A DNA stretch of 64,000 nt from a phage, in sequence record PZ338877.1; one strand, 5' to 3'. The notes below the pieces were generated by a model, which saw only the letters and a list, made by a program, of their open reading frames with translations, searched no databases and had not been told where the DNA came from. The position numbers and the translations under genes are program-made. Below are positions 22,306 through 43,525 of this stretch, one piece after another (position 1 is the stretch's first letter; every line of letters begins with the position of its first letter).

Positions 22306-22805
22306 TAATTAAACCTTACTTTTTGTTTAAGGACTGTTGAATGGTTACCAGATTCATCTACCACATTTACAATCATATCATATACTTTACCTTTGACAAG
22401 TACTTTGTAATCATTTTGTGAAAAAATGTATTCAAGTCTGTTTGTTTCTTTATTAACTGTCATTGGAGATTGAAATGCAGTGTCGAGGGTAATGAAAGCG
22501 GCTTCAATGCTATTAACATTGATACGTTTATTCTCGCAGTTATATAACTTTACACCCAAAAGGCATGAACTGTCAAATGGAATTTTAACAATTTCACTAC
22601 AATTTCCTGAAATAAACGGTTTTCCACTCATTGGTGCATCAAGTAACCTACAAATAGTGAAAACGTCAGAGATTCCACCATCACTAACATAACCTGAAAG
22701 GCTGACCCTTGAGCCAGCCTCTACAGATAGCTTATCAGTAATGATAAGGACACCTCTATACGAATGCACTCGTGTAGCATTTGAAATAGAGATAACTTCA
22801 GCCAT
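22305..22805 (-). CDS. hypothetical head-module protein
   Basis: 166 aa; abuts portal stop. Confidence 0.4.
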   Translation of the reverse strand: MAEVISISNATRVHSYRGVLIITDKLSVEAGSRVSLSGYVSDGGISDVFTICRLLDAPMSGKPFISGNCSEIVKIPFDSSCLLGVKLYNCENKRINVNSIEAAFITLDTAFQSPMTVNKETNRLEYIFSQNDYKVLVKGKVYDMIVNVVDESGNHSTVLKQKVRFN

Positions 22806-24271
22806 TATTTATTTGCCTTATTTGCTGTGCTTGGGTCTTTTGCTGAAGGTGTCTTTGCAGTACCTTCTCCAGCGGTCTTATAACCATCTCCTGAACGGCT
22901 TTGGCTATTCGGAGAAAGCTTTTCAGATACTGGCTGAGACTCATCAGCAGGAGGAAGACCAATATGCTCTCTAAGTTTGTTAGATAGCTCTTTGTCAACT
23001 TCCAAAGCACCTACTGCAACAGTCTTCTGAATATAAGAACCAATTGCTTCAAGGTCTGGAGTTTCGATATCATCATATGTGATTTGTACATGTTCTTCAT
23101 CATCCCACATATTAAGAGCATAAGTCTGCGCAACTAAATCACGGTTAATTACGTTCTTAATTTGCTTCAGCAGAATATCTACTGACATTGCTAATAAGCT
23201 TGTCTTAGAATCTGCAAGAGAGAATGAACCATATTTTGACTGACCCATAGCAAGAACATCTGACATAAATGCCATCATAATCTGCTTAGAATACCTGTCA
23301 ATAATAGAACCTGTGTCATATGCTTTAGCACCCTGTCTAGAAACTAATGAGAACTCAAAAATATCCTCTTTAGTATCTGGGTCGATATATCTAGGCCAGA
23401 TTAAACCTGCTCTGTCGTTAGCAATCATATCATTAACAACAGTTTTGCAGTATTGTACGAAAGCTTTCTTTTCAGGTTCTGCATTTTCATCCAGATAATC
23501 TGGTGGTAAACCAATCTTTGGCATACCCACTAAGTCTCTTGAAACACCAACAGCTTCATACTCTTCAATCTGTACTTTATACTTCCACGGTACATAAGCA
23601 TTAAGTAATGGTGAACGACCTTCTGGGTTACCATACTCATCATCATACTTAAACAGCATGAATTTAGCTCGTGGGAGTTTTCTTGTTAGTGGTCTTTCTC
23701 CAAGATTAATTGCTCCAGCAATATGTGAAACATTTCTCAGATTTTGTCTTACACCAGTAACTTTTCTAAAGTCTTCGTCAAAATACCACTTATCAAGTGT
23801 TGACTGGTTTCTGATTGGTAATTTAGCCCACCCAATTAGACCATCATCAAATTTTGACTGATACTTTCCTTTCTTACCCTGACGTTTCTTATAAACCTTT
23901 TCGTTAACACAGAACCCATAAGTGCAGAATGACATTACAGAGTTAATAAAATCTGCCCAATCATGCTCCATGTCATCCATTAAAGAATTAAAGAAGTCTG
24001 CTCTTTCAAGCATTTTAGGGTCTTGCTCTTTTCCCTTTGGAGGTACGAATCTCCAGTTGACTTTTCTGACAAACATCTTAATAATATTTACAGATGCTGC
24101 TACAGCAGGGTCACGCATCATTAATTGGAAAGTTTTAATACTTTCAGGGAACCTTAGTGCCTGACGAGGTTCTTCATAGATTCTACCATTCTTAACCTTC
24201 AGACCCAAAGAACCTACTTCACCCATTCTAAATGGTGGTAAGCTTTCTTGTGTTTCTGTAATTTCTGCCAT
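22805..24271 (-). CDS. portal protein
   Basis: Track ORF trimmed to Met4 (first codon appears non-ATG; AGGTGAG RBS); ~488 aa directly downstream of terminase. Confidence 0.7.
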   Translation of the reverse strand: MAEITETQESLPPFRMGEVGSLGLKVKNGRIYEEPRQALRFPESIKTFQLMMRDPAVAASVNIIKMFVRKVNWRFVPPKGKEQDPKMLERADFFNSLMDDMEHDWADFINSVMSFCTYGFCVNEKVYKKRQGKKGKYQSKFDDGLIGWAKLPIRNQSTLDKWYFDEDFRKVTGVRQNLRNVSHIAGAINLGERPLTRKLPRAKFMLFKYDDEYGNPEGRSPLLNAYVPWKYKVQIEEYEAVGVSRDLVGMPKIGLPPDYLDENAEPEKKAFVQYCKTVVNDMIANDRAGLIWPRYIDPDTKEDIFEFSLVSRQGAKAYDTGSIIDRYSKQIMMAFMSDVLAMGQSKYGSFSLADSKTSLLAMSVDILLKQIKNVINRDLVAQTYALNMWDDEEHVQITYDDIETPDLEAIGSYIQKTVAVGALEVDKELSNKLREHIGLPPADESQPVSEKLSPNSQSRSGDGYKTAGEGTAKTPSAKDPSTANKANK

Positions 24272-24287
24272 TCTTCTCACCTAGCTA

Positions 24288-25889
24288 TCAACGTCTAAGC
24301 CCCTCATATGGGTTTCCTCTCACTAAGTCTGTGTGAGCACCCATTGATGGTGGCTTGAATAATTTAACTTCGTTAAGACTGTTGAAAGCATCACTGGTAG
24401 CATCCACTTGGTCATCTTTAGTTTTACCGTCACCACAAAAACCTTCAAGTTCTTGAAAGTAAGCTTCGTTCCAACTGCCTCTCAAGACTTTTACAAGTCC
24501 AGCTTCAGAAGCAGCAGAAAATCCCGCAAAGCGGGTAACTTTATCTTTATTTGTTGGTTTAGCTCTTGCGCGATAACCTTTCTCGGCAAGTTTCCTGATG
24601 AGGGATGTTGCATAGGATTTACCAGCAGCGCCTGGGTCTTGAGGGATAAAAATACCAGTTCGCTTACCGTCACTTTCAGCAGTCAAATTAATTTGTGTTT
24701 CGACTCCAGAGGGTCTATCTCTAAATCTTACTACATCAATGATATAATAGCAACCGTCTTTTTTAGATTTACCCATCTTAACACCCGCTGTCCAGTCTGG
24801 GTTAGGGTTAATTTCAGATGGTAAAGTTGCTGCTAAGTCCCATGCTCTGACATCAAACACATCTTCTGGGAGTGAATCAACAATCTCACACCATTGTCTT
24901 TGCCAATAGTTTGAACCTTCTGCACGAGCCTTCCAGTTACCGAAACGAAGTCTTGCAACGTTTACAGGTGTGTTGTTTTCCAACTTACCACGATACTTAG
25001 GCTCTAAGAAGTCAAGAATTGGGTTATCATCAATCGTACCAGAGATGAAGGTGTATGTCTGAGGAATCTCAAGAGGGAACATTTCAAGAATCTTGTCTCT
25101 CTCCCAATCAGAAACCATCACACCATCATTCATAACATACCAACGAATACGACCACATTTCTCAGGGTCTGGGTAACCTTCTTCATCTAAGAATGGCTCT
25201 ACCCAATCATAAATGAAGTGGTCTCTATCTGGGTTCATAGAAATCTTCATGTATGAATCGCCTTCAGCACCAGAACGTAGACGGGTCTGTAGGTATGAAA
25301 TCTGTGAAGCAGAAAAGTGCGTACCTTCGTCAAAGTAGATAGCTGAGTACTCAATACCCTGATGACCTTCAGCGTGCTTTTCAAGTTCTAGGTAGGTAAA
25401 CTTAATAGTTGCCCCAGAAGGGAACGTGATAGTCATCTTCTGCTCGTGAGGAACCCCACCAAACTTACCAAATAGTTTCTTTGCAGCAGGCCATAAACCA
25501 CCTTGTAACTGTGTTGTATTTCGACGGAAATATACAGCGTTATAGTTAGGGTCTTCAATAAACCTTAAAGAGTCCATTAACAATGCAGCAGTCTTACCAG
25601 CACCAGCAGCACCACCATATAGAACCAAGTCAGCATTAGTATTTAAAAAGACCTCTTGAGAACCCGGCTGAGGGGCTACATAGTTCTTATCAGTCATCAA
25701 TTTGAAGATAAGTCTAACTTGGTCTGGTGTGTATCTTAATAAAGTCAGAATTTGAGTTGGAAGGAATTTAGAGGGGTCTTTACCGAATGATTTGATAATT
25801 TCTTTTACTTCATCAGAAAGCCCCAACTCTCCAGCTAGGACTTTCCTAACATCTTCCACTCGCTTCTGCTTAACAGCATTTAAGTCCAT
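24288..25889 (-). CDS. terminase large subunit
   Basis: Trimmed to Met6 with GGAGGTG RBS; Walker A GGAAGAGKT; ~533 aa. Confidence 0.85.
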   Translation of the reverse strand: MDLNAVKQKRVEDVRKVLAGELGLSDEVKEIIKSFGKDPSKFLPTQILTLLRYTPDQVRLIFKLMTDKNYVAPQPGSQEVFLNTNADLVLYGGAAGAGKTAALLMDSLRFIEDPNYNAVYFRRNTTQLQGGLWPAAKKLFGKFGGVPHEQKMTITFPSGATIKFTYLELEKHAEGHQGIEYSAIYFDEGTHFSASQISYLQTRLRSGAEGDSYMKISMNPDRDHFIYDWVEPFLDEEGYPDPEKCGRIRWYVMNDGVMVSDWERDKILEMFPLEIPQTYTFISGTIDDNPILDFLEPKYRGKLENNTPVNVARLRFGNWKARAEGSNYWQRQWCEIVDSLPEDVFDVRAWDLAATLPSEINPNPDWTAGVKMGKSKKDGCYYIIDVVRFRDRPSGVETQINLTAESDGKRTGIFIPQDPGAAGKSYATSLIRKLAEKGYRARAKPTNKDKVTRFAGFSAASEAGLVKVLRGSWNEAYFQELEGFCGDGKTKDDQVDATSDAFNSLNEVKLFKPPSMGAHTDLVRGNPYEGLRR

Positions 25890-25910
25890 TAAGCACCTCC
25901 GCAAATAGAA

Positions 25911-26333: not shown

Positions 26334-26409
26334 TGGAGAATCCGAAGGGACTCGAACCCTTATAAACCTGTTTTGCAGACAGGCACATATCCATTTCTGT
26401 CACGGATTC
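26334..26409 (-). tRNA. tRNA-Cys (GCA)
   Basis: 7-bp acceptor pairing, T-loop TTCGAGT, anticodon loop CT-GCA-AA on reverse complement. Confidence 0.6.
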
Positions 26410-26413
26410 AAAT

Positions 26414-26506
26414 TGGAGGAAGATACCAGACTTGAACTGGTACACCGATTTCTCAGCTACTGGCAGTTTAGCAAACTGCTCCCTTACCTTTTAGGGTTAA
26501 TCTTCC
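26414..26506 (-). tRNA. tRNA-Ser (GCT), long variable arm
   Basis: 93 nt; acceptor pairing ATCTTCC/GGAAGAT, T-loop TTCAAGT, anticodon loop TT-GCT-AA. Confidence 0.6.
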
Positions 26507-26507
26507 A

Positions 26508-27242
26508 TTATTTCTGTAATGCGTTCTTCATTTCTGGTGTTGCAATAGTGTCAATCACACCAGTTTTACAAGCATCATCAAACCAGTCTGGTAAGATACC
26601 TGCTAAGAACCCATTGATATTCGTTTTAAGGTACTCTGCAATAAGGGCAGCTTCTTCTTCAATCATCTGCACAACTTCATCTGCATAAGCTGTAATCTTC
26701 GAGATACCTTCATTAATCTTACTAACAGCTTGATTAGCTAAATCAGAAATAGTATCAAGACCTTTATCAATAGCATCCTGTAAGTCGCTTAATACACCAT
26801 TAACGCCATCTAGTGTGCTGTTAATTGTATCCATAGCTTTTTGACCATACTCTGTAGCAACACCCATAATACCACTAAATGGTGTACAACCAACTTGCTC
26901 TCCTGCTGCACCCATAACATTGGAGTAGCCTTTTGCTACCTGCATACGTGAGGAAAACTCATCAATAGATTTTTGACCATAATCTGTCAATGTTTTAGTA
27001 GTTGCTGTAGTGCTTGTCAGACTCGTTGTAAAGCTATTAAGCAGAACTGTTGTAAGTCCAGCAGCAATGAGCTTATCCTTCATTGTAGGGTCTGTTACAG
27101 AGCTAATAGAGCTTACAAGTGATGTAGAGGCAGCTACGGTTCCACCTAGAACTGCTGCACCAGTAATAAGGGGATTAGAAAACCCTCTACCGGTTTTTAA
27201 GAGATTAAAAATCTCCTTACCTTGTTCTGTCATCTCTTTCAT
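26508..27242 (-). CDS. hypothetical protein embedded in tRNA cluster
   Basis: Track ORF trimmed to Met22 (AGGTG RBS) because upstream part overlaps a tRNA; 244 aa. Confidence 0.5.
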   Translation of the reverse strand: MKEMTEQGKEIFNLLKTGRGFSNPLITGAAVLGGTVAASTSLVSSISSVTDPTMKDKLIAAGLTTVLLNSFTTSLTSTTATTKTLTDYGQKSIDEFSSRMQVAKGYSNVMGAAGEQVGCTPFSGIMGVATEYGQKAMDTINSTLDGVNGVLSDLQDAIDKGLDTISDLANQAVSKINEGISKITAYADEVVQMIEEEAALIAEYLKTNINGFLAGILPDWFDDACKTGVIDTIATPEMKNALQK

Positions 27243-27260
27243 TAAGCACCTTTGAAATTG

Positions 27261-27335
27261 GTAGTCCAGTGGGATTTGAACCCTCTTCTCATGTTTTTCA
27301 GACACGCGCTTTAACCATATAAGCTACTTGGACTA
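27261..27335 (-). tRNA. tRNA-Phe (GAA)
   Basis: 7-bp acceptor TAGTCCA/TGGACTA, T-loop TTCAAAT, anticodon loop CT-GAA-AA. Confidence 0.55.
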
Positions 27336-27340
27336 TAAAT

Positions 27341-27416
27341 TGGGGTGACCTACGGGATTTGAACCCGTATAGACCATGTTCACAGCATGGGTCATTACCA
27401 TTTATGATAAGGCCAC
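27341..27416 (-). tRNA. tRNA-His (GTG)
   Basis: Acceptor pairing with one G-U, T-loop TTCAAAT, anticodon loop CT-GTG-AA. Confidence 0.6.
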
Positions 27417-27447
27417 ATTTAAGGACTCTCGTAAGAATCCTTAGAAG

Positions 27448-27523
27448 TGGCAGCGGCATAAGGATTTGAACCTTAATAAGACAGCTTCAGAGACTGCTGC
27501 ATTGCCAGTTATGCTATACCGCT
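27448..27523 (-). tRNA. tRNA-Gln (CTG), tentative
   Basis: Acceptor pairing, T-loop TTCAAAT; anticodon loop read as CT-CTG-AA with wobble-rich stem. Confidence 0.45.
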
Positions 27524-27528
27524 AAATT

Positions 27529-27599
27529 TGGTACTCCATATCGGATTCGAACCGATACATAACACAGATTTTAAGTCTGGCCTCTCTGCCAATTGGAGT
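27529..27599 (-). tRNA. tRNA, isotype undetermined (possible TAA anticodon)
   Basis: T-arm ATCGG-TTCGAAT-CCGAT and acceptor pairing clear; anticodon arm ambiguous, short body. Confidence 0.4.
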
Positions 27600-27609
27600 A
27601 ATGGAGCAT

Positions 27610-27685
27610 TGGCGGGGGATGTTGGAATTGAACCAACTTCTTCGATTTCAAAGACCGAGGTTTTAACCTTGTAAACTAATCCCCT
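27610..27685 (-). tRNA. tRNA-Gln (TTG)
   Basis: T-loop TTCAATT, anticodon stem TCGGT/ATCGA, loop CT-TTG-AA. Confidence 0.5.
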
Positions 27686-27693
27686 TTAAATCT

Positions 27694-28251
27694 TTACTTT
27701 CTTAGTGGATGAATAAAGAATGCCAACATAACTCTTTCCCTTGAGAATGCTCTTTCTTCTGGGACAACACTTTTAAGTTTCCATCCAACATAAATTCTCC
27801 AGTAGAATTGTTTACCAAAGACTTTAATTGATGGGATAAAGGCGAATAATCCCCAAGCATTACTGTTCCACATTAGGAGATAACCTGTCTGATTATCTTC
27901 AGGGTCAGAACTTACGTTGATATTACCTTTCCACTTAGTAACATCTTTTACATCTCTTCCTAACACATGGTAAGAGAAGTTATAAGCTTTGTTTCTCCAG
28001 AGCCATCCAACTCTCTGCAAATAGACACCCAGCTTACCAATCTTTCTAATCTTAGCCCATCTTTTAATGTGACCTTCATCACCATCAATTGGGTTGTCAT
28101 ATGTCTCCATCCATCTGAATCCGAAAGGTAGATGTCCTTTCTTCTCACTATAGAATGGAACTACAAAAGGTGCTAAGATAACTGCTAAGGTTGCTGCCAA
28201 TGGGTCTAACAAAGCTAGGAAAATCCATGAAGCATACTTCAAATATCTCAT
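27694..28251 (-). CDS. membrane protein embedded in tRNA cluster
   Basis: 185 aa; hydrophobic N-terminal segments, Trp/Lys-rich. Confidence 0.5.
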   Translation of the reverse strand: MRYLKYASWIFLALLDPLAATLAVILAPFVVPFYSEKKGHLPFGFRWMETYDNPIDGDEGHIKRWAKIRKIGKLGVYLQRVGWLWRNKAYNFSYHVLGRDVKDVTKWKGNINVSSDPEDNQTGYLLMWNSNAWGLFAFIPSIKVFGKQFYWRIYVGWKLKSVVPEERAFSRERVMLAFFIHPLRK

Positions 28252-28270
28252 CTAAATAGCCTCTTTAAAT

Positions 28271-28346
28271 TGGTGCAGGATAAGGGATTCGAACCCCTAT
28301 TAACAGCTTCGTAGACTGCTGCTCTATCCATTTGAACTAATCCTGC
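28271..28346 (-). tRNA. tRNA-Arg (ACG)
   Basis: Exact 7-bp acceptor GCAGGAT/ATCCTGC, T-loop TTCGAAT, anticodon loop CT-ACG-AA. Confidence 0.5.
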
Positions 28347-28460
28347 TTACCTACAAGAACACCATACAGTTTTTCACAATCTTTGTTTTTACGTCTGTTT
28401 AGGTATGACGCTCTAAACTTTTTTGCTATTGACTTATCACTCATAGTGCTCTCCCAAAAT

Positions 28461-28538
28461 TGGTGTTCCAAGACGGATTCGAACCGTCACTAGTACAAGG
28501 TTTGAGCTTGCATCCTCTGCCAATTGGGATATTGGAAC
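28461..28538 (-). tRNA. tRNA with CAA anticodon (Leu-type anticodon but short type-I body)
   Basis: Perfect 7-bp acceptor GTTCCAA/TTGGAAC, T-arm GACGG-TTCGAAT-CCGTC, anticodon stem GCAAG/CTTGT, loop CT-CAA-AC. Confidence 0.45.
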
Positions 28539-28539
28539 A

Positions 28540-28612
28540 TGGTGCTCACTAAAGGACTTGAACCTTTTTCTTCATCTTGTAAGGGTGATGTTTTACCATA
28601 TAAACTAAGCGA
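28540..28612 (-). tRNA. tRNA-like sequence (possible pseudo-tRNA)
   Basis: Good T-arm AAAGG-TTCAAGT-CCTTT and CCA end, but acceptor and anticodon stems pair poorly. Confidence 0.3.
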
Positions 28613-28705
28613 GTATGAAAGAGGTCTGAAGTTGTGCCGCTCACTCAACTCCGTGGAATTTGTTACGGTCTTCAGTTGACACCAGCGGTCTTTCACTTGA
28701 CCTCT
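28612..28705 (-). ncRNA. structured RNA candidate bounded by 7-bp terminal inverted repeat
   Basis: AGAGGTC...GACCTCT ends; internal CTGAAGACCGT motif similar to the repeated elements further right. Confidence 0.25.
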
Positions 28706-28709
28706 GAAT

Positions 28710-40285: not shown

Positions 40286-40750
40286 ATGAAGATTAAAGAA
40301 GTTGTTCAAAAAGCAATGCTTGACAACTCAACTAAAGATGAAATGTACAAAGAGATTTGTGACAAGTTGAATTGTTCAAGACATGCTGCTAAGGCTCTTG
40401 TACATTGCTTTATCTGGGAATGCTCAGAAGCTTATATGCAATATGTAGCTTTTGAAAGTTCTCACTTACTAGGTGATGTAGAAGTTGGTGAGAAACTAAA
40501 AGAACCTGAGATGAAAACAGTCCCTAAAGTTGGTAACGTATACCCTCTTAAAGACTTCAAGACTGGAAAGATTGTTGCAAAAGGTGTAGTAGAGCATGTT
40601 TATGATGATGGCGAATACTTACTTAAAGTATTTGAGTGTGGTAGCCACTATACACACTTATGTGGGCTTACATTCTTTGTAACAAAAGAAGACCTCATTA
40701 AAAACAAAGACAACAAGTTTGCAGCCCCAGATTACCAAGTTTTACGATAA
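40286..40750 (+). CDS. hypothetical protein
   Basis: 154 aa. Confidence 0.5.
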   Translation: MKIKEVVQKAMLDNSTKDEMYKEICDKLNCSRHAAKALVHCFIWECSEAYMQYVAFESSHLLGDVEVGEKLKEPEMKTVPKVGNVYPLKDFKTGKIVAKGVVEHVYDDGEYLLKVFECGSHYTHLCGLTFFVTKEDLIKNKDNKFAAPDYQVLR

Positions 40751-40763
40751 TGGTGTGATAGCT

Positions 40764-41312
40764 ATGAAAAAAGATAACTTAAAAGAAGTTGAAGGCAACT
40801 ACCTAGTCCTTGACTGGAATGATATTCGGGAAGCACTCTCCGAAGAAAACCTTGACATACTAAAGCAACTTATCTTCTCAGTACGTCATACCAGAGGTAT
40901 TGTAAACGGTAAAGAGCCATTAGAAGGAATCTTTGTAGAGAAGTCTTATCCGTTCTATGAAGACACTTTGCAGAAAGTTAAAATGTACTTTAGACAGAAG
41001 AACCGTAAAGTGGTCACTATGGTATCTCTGGGTGGTCAGAGTATGTCTGTGATGGAAGATATTAACCCTAAGAGACCAAGTAAAGGTGTTTGTATAAAAA
41101 TCACAGGTCATGAAGAGTACATTTCAGTGGATGACTTTAGTGCATTCTGTAATGGTTCTGCTGTCTTTAATGGGTTTCACTATGATATCCGAGTGTACCC
41201 AATCAAGGGAGATGATATCATGATGCAGGTATTTGATAACAACAATGGATTTACTCATTTTTATCAGACAACCAAGTCATCACTGAAGACAGTTCTGGAA
41301 ACACTGATTTAA
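40764..41312 (+). CDS. hypothetical protein
   Basis: Track ORF trimmed to Met16, which starts after the upstream gene's stop; 182 aa. Confidence 0.45.
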   Translation: MKKDNLKEVEGNYLVLDWNDIREALSEENLDILKQLIFSVRHTRGIVNGKEPLEGIFVEKSYPFYEDTLQKVKMYFRQKNRKVVTMVSLGGQSMSVMEDINPKRPSKGVCIKITGHEEYISVDDFSAFCNGSAVFNGFHYDIRVYPIKGDDIMMQVFDNNNGFTHFYQTTKSSLKTVLETLI

Positions 41313-41323
41313 AATATCTTAAG

Positions 41324-41348
41324 AGCCTCCTTAATTGGGGGCTTTTTA
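41324..41348 (+). terminator. intrinsic terminator ending plus-strand block
   Basis: AGCCTCC-TTAATT-GGGGGCT hairpin followed by TTTTT. Confidence 0.6.
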
Positions 41349-41352
41349 ATTT

Positions 41353-42947
41353 TTATAAAATTTCATCGGTTGTCCCAACCTCTGGGTCACCATCATATGT
41401 GAATAAAATATCTACCCTTCTTAACAACCTTCTTAAGCTTACTCTCTATATATAGTTATATAGTACTATATAGTATCTTAGTATCTATCTAGTGGTCTTA
41501 ATAGCCCCTCTGTATAGCCCTTCTAAACACTCTTCTAACAAGCCTTCTTAACAACCTATACAATCACCTTAACCATCTCTCTACACACTCTTAGAAGCCC
41601 CTATACACCTCTTAATCTCTATGTCAGCTATGTTACTCTCTATAGGTGTTCACTAGGTATTACTAAGCCTCTATATAGACTGTTTTAACAAACTTAACAG
41701 GAATATCTTTACAGACCTTATCTCACAAGGTCTAACACGGTACTAACAAGGTATCTTATAAGCCTGTTTATGCCTGTATTTTTAGAAGACTGTCTAGGTA
41801 ATTATTCAGAATTTTAAAATTTTTATAAAATAGGGCTATCAAGTCATTTTTTAGGGTCTTTGAAGGAACTCAAAAATATCTGTCTGGGATGTATATCTGC
41901 TTGGTAGCCCTTAACATCCCTGTAACATCCCCTTTGCAGAATTTTAAAATATCATTAACAATCTCTTAACAGTTATCACATCTTCTTAACATCTCTTCAG
42001 AGGTCTTAACAGTTTCTTAACAGTTTTAACAAGGGTTTAACAGTTTTCTAACAAGTGCTGAATAGTCTTTACAGATGCTTAACAGATGACTAACAAGAGC
42101 TAACAAGTTAATTTTTAAGAGTTATTTTGTTAAGATAATTAACAAGTTTCTAACAAGTGTTTAATCTTTTTAACAAGCTATTAACATGGTCACTATCTCT
42201 TTCTTATCGTTCCCTTTCCCTCTTAGTGATTCTTTAAATAGCCCTCTTAAAAGCTCTCTATAGCTCCTTGTAAGCTCTTTTAAGTCTCTTCCTAGTAATT
42301 ACACCCCAACTATGTAGAAAGCTCTTTATAGGGCTTTACAGGGGCTTTAAAGGCTATGTCAAAGACTCTTACAAGGATTTTACATGGTTTTAACAGAGAT
42401 TTAACAAGGGGCTAACAAGTTGCTAACAAGTGCCTTAAAAGCATAACTATGTAGGATTTGTTAAGAAATTGTTAAGAAAATGTTAAGGGGGCTAGCATTT
42501 ACGTAACTTTTAAGCAACTTTGAAGTAACTTTATAGCCCCTATAACATACTTTTAAGACACTAACAAGCCCTTTTTAGTAGTTCACAAGATAGCTAACGA
42601 GATGATAAAGCTTACACCCTTATAAGATTCTTTTAAGGCTCTGGGAAGCTTTATAAAGGGCTTTTAAGGGTGAGGTAATGCAATCCCTTAAGTTAGGTTG
42701 ATAAGGCTGTTATAGGGCTTTATAGAGCGTTTAAATGGTTGCCCTTCCCTTTCGGGTTATGGGCTTATATTTAAGTTGATTTGATAAAAGGCTATAGAGT
42801 AAGCTATAGAGTTATTGCTTTTTAAGGTCTGATAAGATTCTGGAAAGGGAAAGGGAAAGGATTGTATAAGGATTGTATAAGACGTAAAAAAGCCCCATAT
42901 AAAGGGGCTGTAAAGGTATCTGGGGCTAAATAGCCCCGTTGCGGCGT
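41353..42947. repeat. 1.6-kb ORF-free region dense in short direct repeats (candidate origin or regulatory hub)
   Basis: No ORF of 60 aa or more on either strand; about 25 copies of TTAACA(A/G)(G/T)-type octamers, tandem GAAAGGG x3, AGGATTGTATA x2, several GGGGCT/AGCCCC hairpins; lies between convergent transcription units. Confidence 0.5.
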
Positions 42948-43196
42948 TTAGTTAGTACCTTCTTTGTCGTAGTACAGAGAGACAATTTTTTCACCCCAAT
43001 GGTGATATGAATAGCCCTCTTTGAGAACTTCCTGTTTTGTTTCTTTCCAGAACTCATCTGAAGGATTATAGTCGCTGATGGTCTGACTGATAAGACCTTT
43101 CACCATTTCAAAGGCGTTGTCAGTGCCTACAAGGTCAAATTTAACATCCAGAGAGTAGAAGCCAAATTCGTTAACAGTAGCGCGGATAGTTGCCAT
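42948..43196 (-). CDS. hypothetical small protein
   Basis: Track ORF trimmed by 15 codons: its N-terminal MTSLLNKVLKLGDSK is in-frame translation of the conserved upstream cassette; Met16 follows the CTAGGAGA RBS. Confidence 0.5.
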   Translation of the reverse strand: MATIRATVNEFGFYSLDVKFDLVGTDNAFEMVKGLISQTISDYNPSDEFWKETKQEVLKEGYSYHHWGEKIVSLYYDKEGTN

Positions 43197-43264
43197 TTTA
43201 GAGTCTCCTAGTTTAAGGACTTTATTTAGTAGGGAGGTCATCCCTCCCGTTGATTAGTAATTTA
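43197..43264 (-). promoter_or_regulatory. type-A intergenic cassette (stop codon, GGGAGG hairpin, RBS)
   Basis: On minus strand: TAA-ATTACTAATCAAC-GGGAGGGATAACCTCCC-...CTAGGAGA-spacer-ATG. Confidence 0.5.
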
Positions 43265-43525
43265 CTGCATGTTGGCGTATGTTGCAAGCCTTTTTTCGTT
43301 GTATTTTGTAAGAATCTCACAAGATAAAACATCGTAATTTGTAACCGCGTTGCCTTTGTCGAGGTCAAAGAATCCAAATGTTTTACCATCTTTGAATCCG
43401 ACAACTTCGTAAGACTCTTTGATGATTTCACCATTGAACAAATCACTTTCAATGCGGTGAATTAATGCTACGTTTTCTTTGTTGGTTGCAATTTGTAAAA
43501 GTGTGGTTAATTCTACGTTTTCCAT
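43262..43525 (-). CDS. hypothetical small protein
   Basis: 87 aa; starts at cassette ATG, stops in next cassette TAA. Confidence 0.5.
   Translation of the reverse strand: MENVELTTLLQIATNKENVALIHRIESDLFNGEIIKESYEVVGFKDGKTFGFFDLDKGNAVTNYDVLSCEILTKYNEKRLATYANMQ

Follow-up and report, generated by a model that had tools for sequence, protein, structure and literature searches.

The 64,000 nucleotides analyzed here (the window, 64 kb) are the genome of a Felixounavirus (Felix O1-like phage), and the central part (positions 41903–42492) of a gene-free region of 1.6 kb is, judged by its homologs, very probably the direct terminal repeat (DTR) of the linear phage DNA. The repeat contains arrays of short cores in phase with the DNA helix and is bordered by two conserved blocks that share an inverted element. 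According to the reading considered likely here, unit-length DNA is packaged by this Felix O1-like myovirus with a short, exact, non-permuted DTR of the T7 type, and the region represents its terminus; the arrays may be bound by a protein of packaging or end processing. DTRs have been mapped before in close relatives, and the identity of the region as such is already known.

The gene-free gap and the predicted genome ends

A preliminary description of the sequence had reported a 1.6-kb stretch without ORFs, located at 41353–42947 between convergent gene blocks, and both the coordinates and the lack of ORFs were confirmed. The longest ORF wholly inside this stretch has a length of 28 amino acids (20-aa cut-off), and with a cut-off of 30 aa nothing was detected between the end of the last plus-strand gene at 41312 and the starts of minus-strand ORFs at 42926 and 42948. 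The gap separates the two convergent gene blocks and has a terminator-like hairpin at each edge. The GGGGCT/AGCCCC hairpins noticed earlier are present at 42891–42909 (terminator-like, minus strand) and 42921–42936. Terminators are also annotated at both gap edges in the records of AYO145A and Moogle (rho-independent at the position homologous to 41321–41346). The features of the region are as follows.

41321–41346, plus strand: terminator-like hairpin at the end of the rightward gene block (last gene 40719–41312); stem of 10 pairs and subsequent T run
41353–41902, plus strand: unique non-coding flank adjoining the predicted virion right end; pyrimidine-rich on the plus strand
41809–41833, no strand assigned: AT-rich near-palindrome GAATTTTAAAATTTTTATAAAATAG, approximately 70 bp outside the left repeat boundary
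41890–41925, plus strand: left terminus block, TGTATATCTGCTT before and GGTAGCCCTTAACAT after the cut; predicted virion left end at 41903 (41901 by UAB_Phi87 run-off)
41903–42492, plus strand: predicted direct terminal repeat of 590 bp, a single copy in the window; placed by the record ends of relatives and the UAB_Phi87 mapping
41912–42186, plus strand: array of 17 forward-oriented TAACA cores with the consensus kTyyTAACArGtt; gaps of 9–11 nt or multiples thereof
42190–42330, plus strand: pyrimidine-rich repeat centre; switch of the G/C strand bias and of the orientation of GCCC-type and CTATAG-type units
42369–42428, plus strand: second forward array of six T[AT]ACA cores with exact 11-nt spacing
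42456–42490, minus strand: three inverted units (TTGTTAAGAAA x3) adjoining the right boundary; period 11 and 94% matches in Tandem Repeats Finder
42470–42510, minus strand: right terminus block, ending in ATGTTAAGGGGGC before and starting with TAGCATTTACGTAA after the cut (minus-strand reading TGCTA before and GCCCCCTTAACAT after it); predicted virion right end at 42492 (42484 by UAB_Phi87 run-off)
42493–42947, plus strand: unique non-coding flank adjoining the predicted virion left end; purine/G-rich on the plus strand
42891–42936, minus strand: terminator-like hairpin (42891–42909) and second GGGGCT..AGCCCC hairpin (42921–42936) at the end of the leftward gene block

Compared to Felixounavirus genomes the region 41353–42947 showed 92–95% identity, and at least 80% of it was covered in 205 of the 257 matching records. 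More than 200 phage records contain the region, likewise gene-free. A protein conserved among the homologs, which would have pointed to a decayed gene, was not found: the small ORFs annotated in some records are not shared, and the window is without any. Several GenBank records fill the 1.6 kb with small hypothetical ORFs, a practice that annotation should avoid.

Among the roles suggested earlier, that of a packaging or genome-end region proved correct, the central 590 bp being homologous to the repeat that relatives carry at both ends and to the mapped DTR of UAB_Phi87. The record of ECP2307 has an exact repeat of 592 bp at both ends, and that of Citrobacter phage HP1 an annotated repeat_region of 570 bp at both ends; in each phage the two copies are 100% identical and map to 41903–42492. 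The pEP20 record starts at the equivalent of position 41903, the segment is located at a record end in at least eight further records, and the boundaries 41903 and 42492 recur as fixed ends in all of these independent isolates. In total, the segment was matched at 293 places in 259 records, which indicates approximately 34 records with two copies. For the Salmonella phage UAB_Phi87, also a Felixounavirus, a DTR of 608 bp has been mapped experimentally, using Bal31 digestion together with run-off sequencing (Bardina et al., 2016; PMC4837284). In the window, this published DTR corresponds to 41901–42484 by alignment, and the repeat projected onto the UAB_Phi87 record has a size of 614 bp. By PhageTerm, DTRs have also been identified in other Felix O1-like phages, with a length of 613 bp in Ro111lw. 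Since relatives carry 41903–42492 at both record ends and the UAB_Phi87 DTR aligns to it, the window with its one copy shows the concatemer-junction form, in which assembly has collapsed the two terminal copies. Records of this phage group should open at approximately 41903, with a copy of the 590-bp repeat at each end.

The termini of the phage studied here were placed by homology only, from the assembled window. UAB_Phi87 belongs to the same genus, and its homologous DTR occupies the corresponding non-coding gap where the gene blocks converge, but its run-off boundaries deviate from those of the records with two terminal copies (left boundary 2 nt, right boundary 8 nt), and the boundaries of Erwinia phage M7 lie within 2–3 nt of the record-derived ones. 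Owing to these discrepancies the exact cut positions are uncertain by 2–8 nt, and so is a model of symmetric nicks. A headful pac site was rejected as explanation because the repeats of the relatives are exact and their boundaries are fixed at both ends; the degradation of two specific fragments of UAB_Phi87 DNA by Bal31 also counts against it (PMC4837284).

Boundary blocks, phased cores and flanks

In an alignment of 10 phages the left terminus block was invariant and the right terminus block nearly so. The records of ECP2307 and pEP20 begin at the left block, and those of ECP2307 and HP1 end or start at the right one. The motif GCCC{0,3}TTAACAT has just two sites in the 64 kb, at 41907 (plus strand) and 42492 (minus strand, 5′ base), i.e., it marks both boundaries and faces inward at each. 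The cuts are not equidistant from this shared element: one precedes TTAACA by 8 nt, the other by 6 nt. The three inverted units at 42456–42490 are 91–95% complementary to 42004–42026 (inverted repeats I6/I13). Hairpins were considered at both boundaries and rejected as a main element. The right boundary lies within the loop formed by an imperfect inverted repeat of 35 nt (I1; fold z = −2.3), but the arms of this potential hairpin or cruciform vary by 11-nt units among relatives, and at the left boundary the stem was not significant (z = −0.47) and the arm not conserved. Mini-palindrome insertions as known from relatives were not found in the whole 64-kb window.

The dense short motifs that had been noted at the outset are real. 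TAACA[AG] occurs 28 times in 41353–42947 (24 copies on the plus and 4 on the minus strand), with 20 copies within the repeat and 8 in the flanks. This corresponds to 17.6 copies per kb, compared to 1.7 per kb in the remaining window, and every top-ranking 1.6-kb stretch overlaps the region (29 copies versus a median of 3). A tandem structure, also claimed before, was recovered by Tandem Repeats Finder as many arrays with a period of 10–11 between 41725 and 42881, and the units GGAAAG (x3.2, 42842–42860) and AAGGATTGTAT (x2.3, 42857–42881) were found in tandem as well; these threefold and twofold repeats (42842–42881) vary among relatives.

Within the repeat there are 26 T[AT]ACA cores, whose positions are phased at 10.4 bp over approximately 500 bp (R = 0.74; reached in 0 of 2,000 random placements), and the 17-core forward array has a phase coherence of R = 0.82 at 10.3 bp (matched by 0 of 2,000 random placements). 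The cores sit on one face of the helix. The 10.4-bp period was also detected in six relatives with repeats of 570–659 bp, which are akin to each other and do not represent independent tests, and five relatives are without one 11-nt unit of the second forward array. Most cores share one orientation across the repeat, and the dyad symmetry thus is partial. In the 10-phage alignment 78% of the TAACA core positions were invariant compared to 57.5% elsewhere (Fisher p = 4e-8), and the spacers diverge. The cores are good candidates for protein-binding sites. Terminal repeats are mentioned in the genome papers of Felix O1 and UAB_Phi87, the PhageMaP preprint on Bas63, and several genome announcements, but the arrays are not, and the literature on the DTRs of UAB_Phi87 and Felix O1-like phages gives repeat length and sequence only, with no motif arrays, helical phasing, or inverted boundary element. 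Invariant cores with drifting spacers, the 10.4-bp phasing, and the inverted boundary element thus appear to be undescribed in that literature.

Erwinia phage M7, a member of another genus, has an exact DTR of 444 bp with 100% identical copies at both record ends. It keeps both boundary blocks (the cut in the left block is shifted by 2 nt), the three inverted TGTTAAG units at the right boundary, and TTAACA/TGTTAAG arrays, and its interior is unalignable. A scan of IMG/VR for TTAACA-N5-TTAACA-N5-TTAACA returned mostly chance matches in AT-rich DNA. The few unrelated contigs with real TTAACA arrays, which were picked by the search pattern itself, have a mixed context (a sigma-factor-like gene, a methyltransferase, TerL at a distance of 4.5 kb), and no common protein emerged among them. 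In the unrelated viral contigs L063/L086, L070, and L036, dense TTAACA arrays are located near contig ends.

The two flanks of the repeat differ in composition and in the orientation of their units. The flank at 41353–41902 carries forward-oriented CTTAACA, CTTCTAA, CTCTATAG, and TAGCCCC units, 63% of its positions are invariant over 10 phages from three genera, and its GC skew goes down to −0.71. In the flank at 42493–42947 most units have the orientation opposite to that of the left flank (CTATAGAG, AGGGCTTT, CTTTTAAG), 56% of the positions are invariant, and the GC skew is +0.24 to +0.47. The strand asymmetry mentioned in the preliminary description is thus present, with skews per 100 nt of −0.33 to −0.71 at 41400–41699 and +0.24 to +0.47 at 42600–42899; the change is not smooth (−0.59 at 41900–41999 and −0.44 at 42200–42299). 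In the repeat centre, which contains the inverted repeats I2 and I4, the purine fraction is 0.30 at 42200–42299 and then 0.52–0.60. The blastn match of Citrobacter phage HP1 spans window positions 41383–42492 and ends short of the neighboring gene. The block TAAAATTTTTATAAAATAG of the AT-rich near-palindrome is invariant in the 10-phage alignment, and a second copy of TTTTTATAAAAT is found at 41351–41362.

Candidate functions of the arrays

By homology to the mapped termini, the repeat is present at both ends of the virion DNA and occurs once in replicating concatemers, as in this assembly, between the last genes of two outward-transcribed terminal blocks. In the proposed mechanism, a terminase complex would recognize the two invariant boundary blocks, which bear GCCC(CC)TTAACAT in inverted orientation relative to each other. 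As this inverted element is shared, one enzyme could make both cuts, on opposite strands and approximately 590 bp apart, after which strand-displacement synthesis would duplicate the repeat as in the classical T7 model. The 26 T[AT]ACA cores and the related oriented units of the flanks would bind an oligomeric protein, either small-terminase-like or an end-processing factor, that may coat the junction or wrap it and determine where the cuts are made.

The terminal repeat of T7 is likewise short, exact, non-permuted, and non-coding, and many copies of a core of approximately 7 nt occur both within it and in its immediate vicinity. T7 ends are considered to arise from sequence-specific cuts combined with duplication of the repeat, and the SRL and SRR arrays of CCTAAAG heptamers were reportedly described by Dunn and Studier in 1983. 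Within T7 positions 1–420, CCTAAAG arrays were found inside and next to the 160-bp terminal repeat, and the 28 TAACA[AG] copies of the region studied here are also distributed within and adjacent to the repeat; this T7-like layout is an architectural analogy and not homology. The motifs differ (CCTAAAG versus yTTAACAr here), as do the sizes of the repeats (160 bp versus approximately 590 bp) and the array spacing (mostly 12–14 nt in T7, read by eye, versus 11-nt units). Moreover, strong early promoters are located just inside the left end of T7, in contrast to the present genome, where transcription of both terminal gene blocks runs toward the ends, and T7 itself is a podovirus that is not related to this phage and uses another terminase. 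Outside T7, little is understood of the way in which short terminal repeats are cut and duplicated. The Felix O1 group offers an unusually clear cis-acting layout, consisting of invariant boundary blocks, an inverted element, and 26 phased cores resembling binding sites, which is directly testable in Bas63, a genetically tractable relative. Edits or payloads near the genome ends should spare the boundary blocks and arrays.

Repeated boxes bound by small terminases are represented by the P1 pac hexamers, the SPP1 pacL and pacR boxes, and the R sites of lambda cosB. Such pac and cos regions are similar in that short repeated boxes flank the terminase cleavage site and in that helical phasing or bending builds a nucleoprotein complex, but the respective phages have cohesive or headful permuted ends, whereas direct repeats are fixed here and no small terminase is recognizable. 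The large terminase gene (TerL) was identified at 24288–25904 on the minus strand (phrog_979, E = 1e-233), and a published tree (PMC4837284) suggests a place for it in a Felix O1-like cluster of DTR terminases. The portal gene was identified as well. Neither a small terminase nor another DNA-binding protein could be named, since the 66-aa ORF upstream of TerL has matches in families of unknown function only, like all the flanking ORFs. Thus nothing ties the arrays to packaging over replication, transcription, or end protection, and the assignment of the array-binding protein to packaging or end formation is a tentative one. A bolder reading, which is doubtful, regards the arrays and the inward boundary elements as a subfamily-wide "terminus code" that would be read by a phage protein coating one face of approximately 500 bp and setting the distance between the cuts, a recognition system shared beyond the Felix O1 group. 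The Ounavirinae are without a recognizable small terminase. If this reading is true, the arrays of contigs L063/L086, L070, and L036 would extend the recognition system past the Felix O1 group.

Replication offers a different interpretation of the same arrays, which may be the iterons of an origin in or beside a real terminal repeat, where a phage initiator would bind and melt the AT-rich palindrome. Iteron origins such as lambda ori, the P1 and P4 origins, and plasmid oriV also have multiple direct repeats on one helical face beside AT-rich DNA; in addition, invariant AT-rich near-palindromes are present at 41809–41833 and 41351–41362, the G/C strand bias shifts within the region, and T7 has secondary origins near its ends. 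However, the units measure 11 bp and the core 6–7 bp, compared to 17–22 bp in typical iterons, the arrays coincide with mapped genome ends, and comparable arrays in T7 are not known to act as its primary origin. A strict DnaA box is missing from the region (there is one relaxed TTWTNCACA match), an IHF site is likewise absent, and no initiator-like gene adjoins the region; the eight flanking or tested ORFs were all assigned either to packaging or to families without known function. GC skew was discarded as origin marker because it follows gene orientation: the cumulative skew over the window tracks the direction of the genes, and the region is at a local maximum where they converge. The earlier proposal of a replication origin with iterons therefore received no positive support, and an origin function is considered rather unlikely.

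The arrays could also bind a protein unrelated to packaging and replication, be it a host nucleoid or response-regulator-type protein or an early protein of the phage, with possible roles in end protection after injection, control of DNA entry, silencing of transcription across the ends, or titration of a host factor. The suggestion of a DNA-binding-protein sink was half right in this sense: conserved and helically phased cores do resemble protein-binding sites, and titration is a candidate role. Direct repeats at 10–11 bp spacing are typical of winged-helix regulators, TTAACA agrees with the −35 hexamer TTGACA at five of six bases, and dense TTAACA arrays exist in the unrelated viral contigs L070 (upstream of the sigma-factor-like gene) and L036, although the search pattern itself had picked these contigs. 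The arrays do not fit the consensus of any known host factor, and IHF, DnaA, and Chi sites are absent from the region apart from the relaxed DnaA match. A promoter cluster was rejected since the sigma-70 scan gave 12 promoter-like sites versus 6.5 ± 2.7 in shuffled sequences (approximately 2 sd), none of them strong inside the region (none above 9 of 12). In two mutually unalignable genera the arrays map precisely to the repeat and its boundaries, which ties them to the termini. A protein of unrelated function is considered improbable.

A non-coding RNA locus, another of the earlier suggestions, was unsupported, and the possibility that the region encodes one or more such RNAs or is a decayed protein-coding gene is extremely remote. 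The long conserved non-coding stretch and a few imperfect hairpins, including the fold at the right boundary, are compatible with it, but terminator-like hairpins face inward from both edges and insulate the region, the left-boundary hairpin lacks significance and a conserved arm, and no ORF inside exceeds 28 aa. In Rfam 15, scanned with permissive thresholds over 41000–43300, no family came near its threshold, and the two matches are sub-threshold chance matches (mir-708 as the best, with 26.6 bits versus a gathering score of 71, and Phe_leader with 26 versus 55 bits). A literature search for transcriptome data gave nothing relevant. The pattern of conservation argues against both possibilities as well, since it falls on cores of 5–7 nt, with drifting spacers and indels of 11 or 22 nt, and not on stems or codons.

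Gene-free region and its genomic setting

The ORF-free region (41353-42947) is 92–95% identical to genomes of Felixounavirus, with JohannRWettstein (Bas63) as top match, and at least 80% of it is covered in 205 of the 257 phage records with a match. It is bounded by the end of a plus-strand gene at 41312 and by minus-strand ORF starts at 42926/42948, between which no ORF was found at a cut-off of 30 aa, and the longest ORF fully within it (cut-off 20 aa) has 28 aa, in agreement with the preliminary description. Careful annotations of relatives also show the region without genes and with terminators on either side. The records of UAB_Phi87 (a Salmonella phage), SME50, Meda, and E9 each annotate 2–5 small hypothetical proteins (25–49 aa) here, but since these are not common to different GenBank records and the window lacks an ORF >28 aa in this place, they are probably over-calls.

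Genes and terminators in the window
22805-24280: portal gene
24288-25904: TerL gene
26334-31530, minus strand: cluster of the 26 tRNA genes of the window, adjoining a 471-aa ORF at 31696-33111
41321-41346, plus strand: inward-facing terminator-like hairpin, left edge of the region
42891-42909, minus strand: inward-facing terminator-like hairpin, right edge of the region

The 471-aa ORF beside the tRNA cluster has a match to a PHROG with the annotation 'RNA-binding protein'; in Bas63, the Ro60-like gp130 is encoded directly upstream of the tRNA genes (Bas63 PhageMaP preprint). The window (1-64000) also shows an extreme avoidance of restriction sites and of the Dam site, which low G+C does not explain: GATC is absent (~212–225 copies expected), as are 29 of the 64 six-base palindromes, including the AT-rich GAATTC, AGATCT, ATCGAT, ATGCAT, and TGATCA (each expected ~21 times).

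Genome ends and terminal repeat

Several GenBank records of relatives opened inside the region, and both record ends were compared for three. ECP2307 carries an exact repeat of 592 bp at both ends and Citrobacter phage HP1 (Mooglevirus) one of 570 bp, annotated as repeat_region; both map to window 41903-42492, and the pEP20 record starts at the same left boundary. A search with this 590-bp segment identified 293 places in 259 records, and in at least eight further records (ZX4221, SPJ41, CRP22, E9, NBEco005, GE_vB_7A, KMM2, and PC79-13) it lies exactly at the record end. Bardina et al. (2016; PMC4837284) combined run-off sequencing with a time-limited digestion by Bal31 and demonstrated direct terminal repeats (DTRs) of 608 bp in UAB_Phi87, the sequence of which (Figure S1 of that paper) aligns to window 42484-41901. 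PhageTerm analyses yielded a 613-bp DTR in the Felix O1-like phage Ro111lw and short DTRs in Philippine Felix O1-like isolates including E9 and in the Kolesnikvirus phages Fifi106 and Fifi318; short terminal repeats had already been inferred in the Felix O1 paper.

The region is thus very probably the terminal-repeat region in which the genome ends lie, its position in the window being assigned by homology. Since the segment is present only once, the window shows the junction form, with the repeat preceded by the right unique flank and followed by the left one. Transcription of both adjacent gene blocks runs outward to the physical ends. From the list of roles considered in the preliminary description, the genome-end option is the part that stood. 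What the feature is was known before, because the UAB_Phi87 DTR is homologous and, with the PhageTerm-derived DTRs of the genus, the closest known item: for this phage genus it is an ordinary element that had been mapped previously. The published accounts found by literature search, beside which others may exist, give length and sequence of the repeats, with no mention of arrays, phasing, or a boundary element. What remains of interest is how the cis-acting elements of the terminus are laid out, which can be tested and appears undescribed in this literature, although descriptions elsewhere are possible.

Phased motif arrays and their conservation

TAACA[AG] occurs 28 times in 41353-42947 (24 plus, 4 minus strand), a density of 17.6 per kb vs. 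1.7 per kb over the remainder of the window; per 1.6-kb stretch the maximum is 29 and the median 3, with no other stretch coming near. Tandem Repeats Finder detected a chain of arrays with a period of 10–11 (41725-42881) plus GGAAAG x3 and AAGGATTGTAT x2. The iterated TTAACA-type motifs and tandem short units described previously were thereby recovered, as were the hairpins and the strand asymmetry. On the helix, the cores occupy a single face: their nearest-neighbor gap is 11 nt, rarer gaps of 9, 10, 20, 31, and 39 nt hold the long-range register, and phase coherence at 10.4 bp was found for the repeat's 26 forward T[AT]ACA cores (Rayleigh R = 0.74, a value reached in 0 of 2000 random placements). 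The same period was found in six relatives, which are not independent of each other (R 0.70–0.80, repeats of 570–659 bp), and indels in their repeats leave the core phase intact.

The G/C strand bias changes from strongly negative at the left of the region to positive at the right, with local reversals between. In the right flank, most GCCC-type and CTATAG-type units are reversed relative to the single orientation that they have in the left flank, which accounts for the asymmetry. An origin of replication with iterons could be indicated by an invariant AT-rich palindrome at 41809-41833, but is unlikely, as the GC skew tracks transcription and neither a strict DnaA box, an IHF site, nor an initiator gene was found in the region or adjoining genes. 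Two copies of TTTTTATAAAAT, invariant across three genera, are located after the left terminator (41351-41362) and ~70 bp beyond the left boundary of the repeat (41821-41832), and CAGAATTTTAAAAT likewise occurs twice (41807 and 41938).

Across ten aligned phages of three genera (Felixounavirus, Suspvirus, and Mooglevirus), invariant positions account for ~60% of the non-coding sequence; blastn similarity to HP1 spans window 41383-42492, ending short of the gene on the left. Invariant positions make up 78% of the TAACA cores vs. 57.5% of the rest (Fisher p = 4e-8), and the spacers separating the cores drift, as would be expected if the cores were the phylogenetic footprint left by binding sites. 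The cores and boundary blocks are shown to be under selection. A non-coding RNA or a decayed gene is highly improbable, since the conservation pattern is wrong for both, an Rfam match is absent, and the region has no ORF >28 aa.

Among the indels that separate the ten sequences are several of 11 nt as well as palindromic inserts of 22–32 nt. The latter (e.g., GGGATTGGTAACAATACCAATT, TTGATTCGGTAGAATCTACCTCAT, AGTGGTTGTTTACAAACACAAC, and TAGGTTATCTGTATTACTTAACAGTAACCCAT) are present or absent at differing spots over 41600-42900 among five relatives (L010, L012, L013, L014, and L015) and look like small mobile hairpin elements; none occurs within the window.

Repeat boundaries and a candidate packaging mechanism

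Boundary blocks (slash, repeat boundary)
Left: TGTATATCTGCTT/GGTAGCCCTTAACAT, invariant in the ten phages
Right: ATGTTAAGGGGGC/TAGCATTTACGTAA, nearly invariant; minus-strand reading TGCTA/GCCCCCTTAACAT

GCCC{0,3}TTAACAT has only two copies in the 64 kb, at 41907 on the plus strand and, counted from the 5' base, at 42492 on the minus strand, so that the element faces inward at both boundaries. Three inverted TTGTTAAGAAA units abut the right boundary and are 91–95% complementary to units at 42004-42026. Erwinia phage vB_EamM-M7 (Kolesnikvirus) has an exact 444-bp repeat at both record ends, the interior of which does not align with the window. Conservation reaches the level of the subfamily: in window orientation, M7 keeps the left block as TGTATATCTAC/TTAGTGGCC and, at the right boundary, three TGTTAA(G/A/C) units and GGCTAA, with cuts offset by 2–3 nt. 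Its repeat contains 20 TAACA/TGTTA cores in two opposed sets, flanked by CTTCTAAG-type arrays on one side and TGTTAAGA-type arrays on the other. The sole GCTAGC of the window (42491-42496) straddles the right boundary (GGGGGC/TAGC); it is not kept in Sf13 or M7 (GGCTAAC) and may be a coincidence.

The boundary blocks may be recognized by the terminase complex, and with the shared element in inverted orientation, a single nuclease could suffice to cut one boundary on one strand and the other boundary on the opposite strand; synthesis with strand displacement over 590 bp would then provide each daughter end with a full repeat. Staggered nicking with strand displacement is the classical model proposed for T7 ends. 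The phased arrays would be the binding sites of an oligomeric protein wrapping or coating the junction, in the way proposed for small terminase rings at pac and cos sites. This scheme has three weak points. The two cuts lie at unequal distances from the shared element, and sources differ by 2–8 nt on their position. No small terminase or other DNA-binding protein was recognizable among the window ORFs examined. Orientation is the same for most cores, which leaves the symmetry partial. That the arrays bind a non-packaging protein (for end protection, entry control, silencing, or as a sink) is unlikely; promoter-like sites exceed shuffled sequences by only ~2 sd.

In architecture, the nearest analog is the terminal repeat of T7, which contains and adjoins arrays of CCTAAAG heptamers, although T7 is an unrelated phage that differs in motif, repeat length, spacing, and gene orientation. 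Scanning IMG/VR for three TTAACA at 11-nt spacing yielded mostly chance matches, plus Ounavirinae contigs and a few unrelated contigs without detectable similarity to the window that have 10–13 copies per 600 bp. Their dense, ~11-nt-spaced TTAACA/TGTTAAG arrays (L070, 7179-7560; L063, 536-760; L086, 4179-4560; L036, 6269-6420) are a lead rather than evidence, since these loci were selected by the search pattern itself. The L063/L086 array lies 400–600 bp from a contig end and 4.5 kb from a TerL gene, and that of L070 precedes a sigma-factor-like gene; L070 also carries TTGTTAAGTTTATGTTAAGTTTATGTTAAGGGCTGCCC, which resembles the right boundary in the window.
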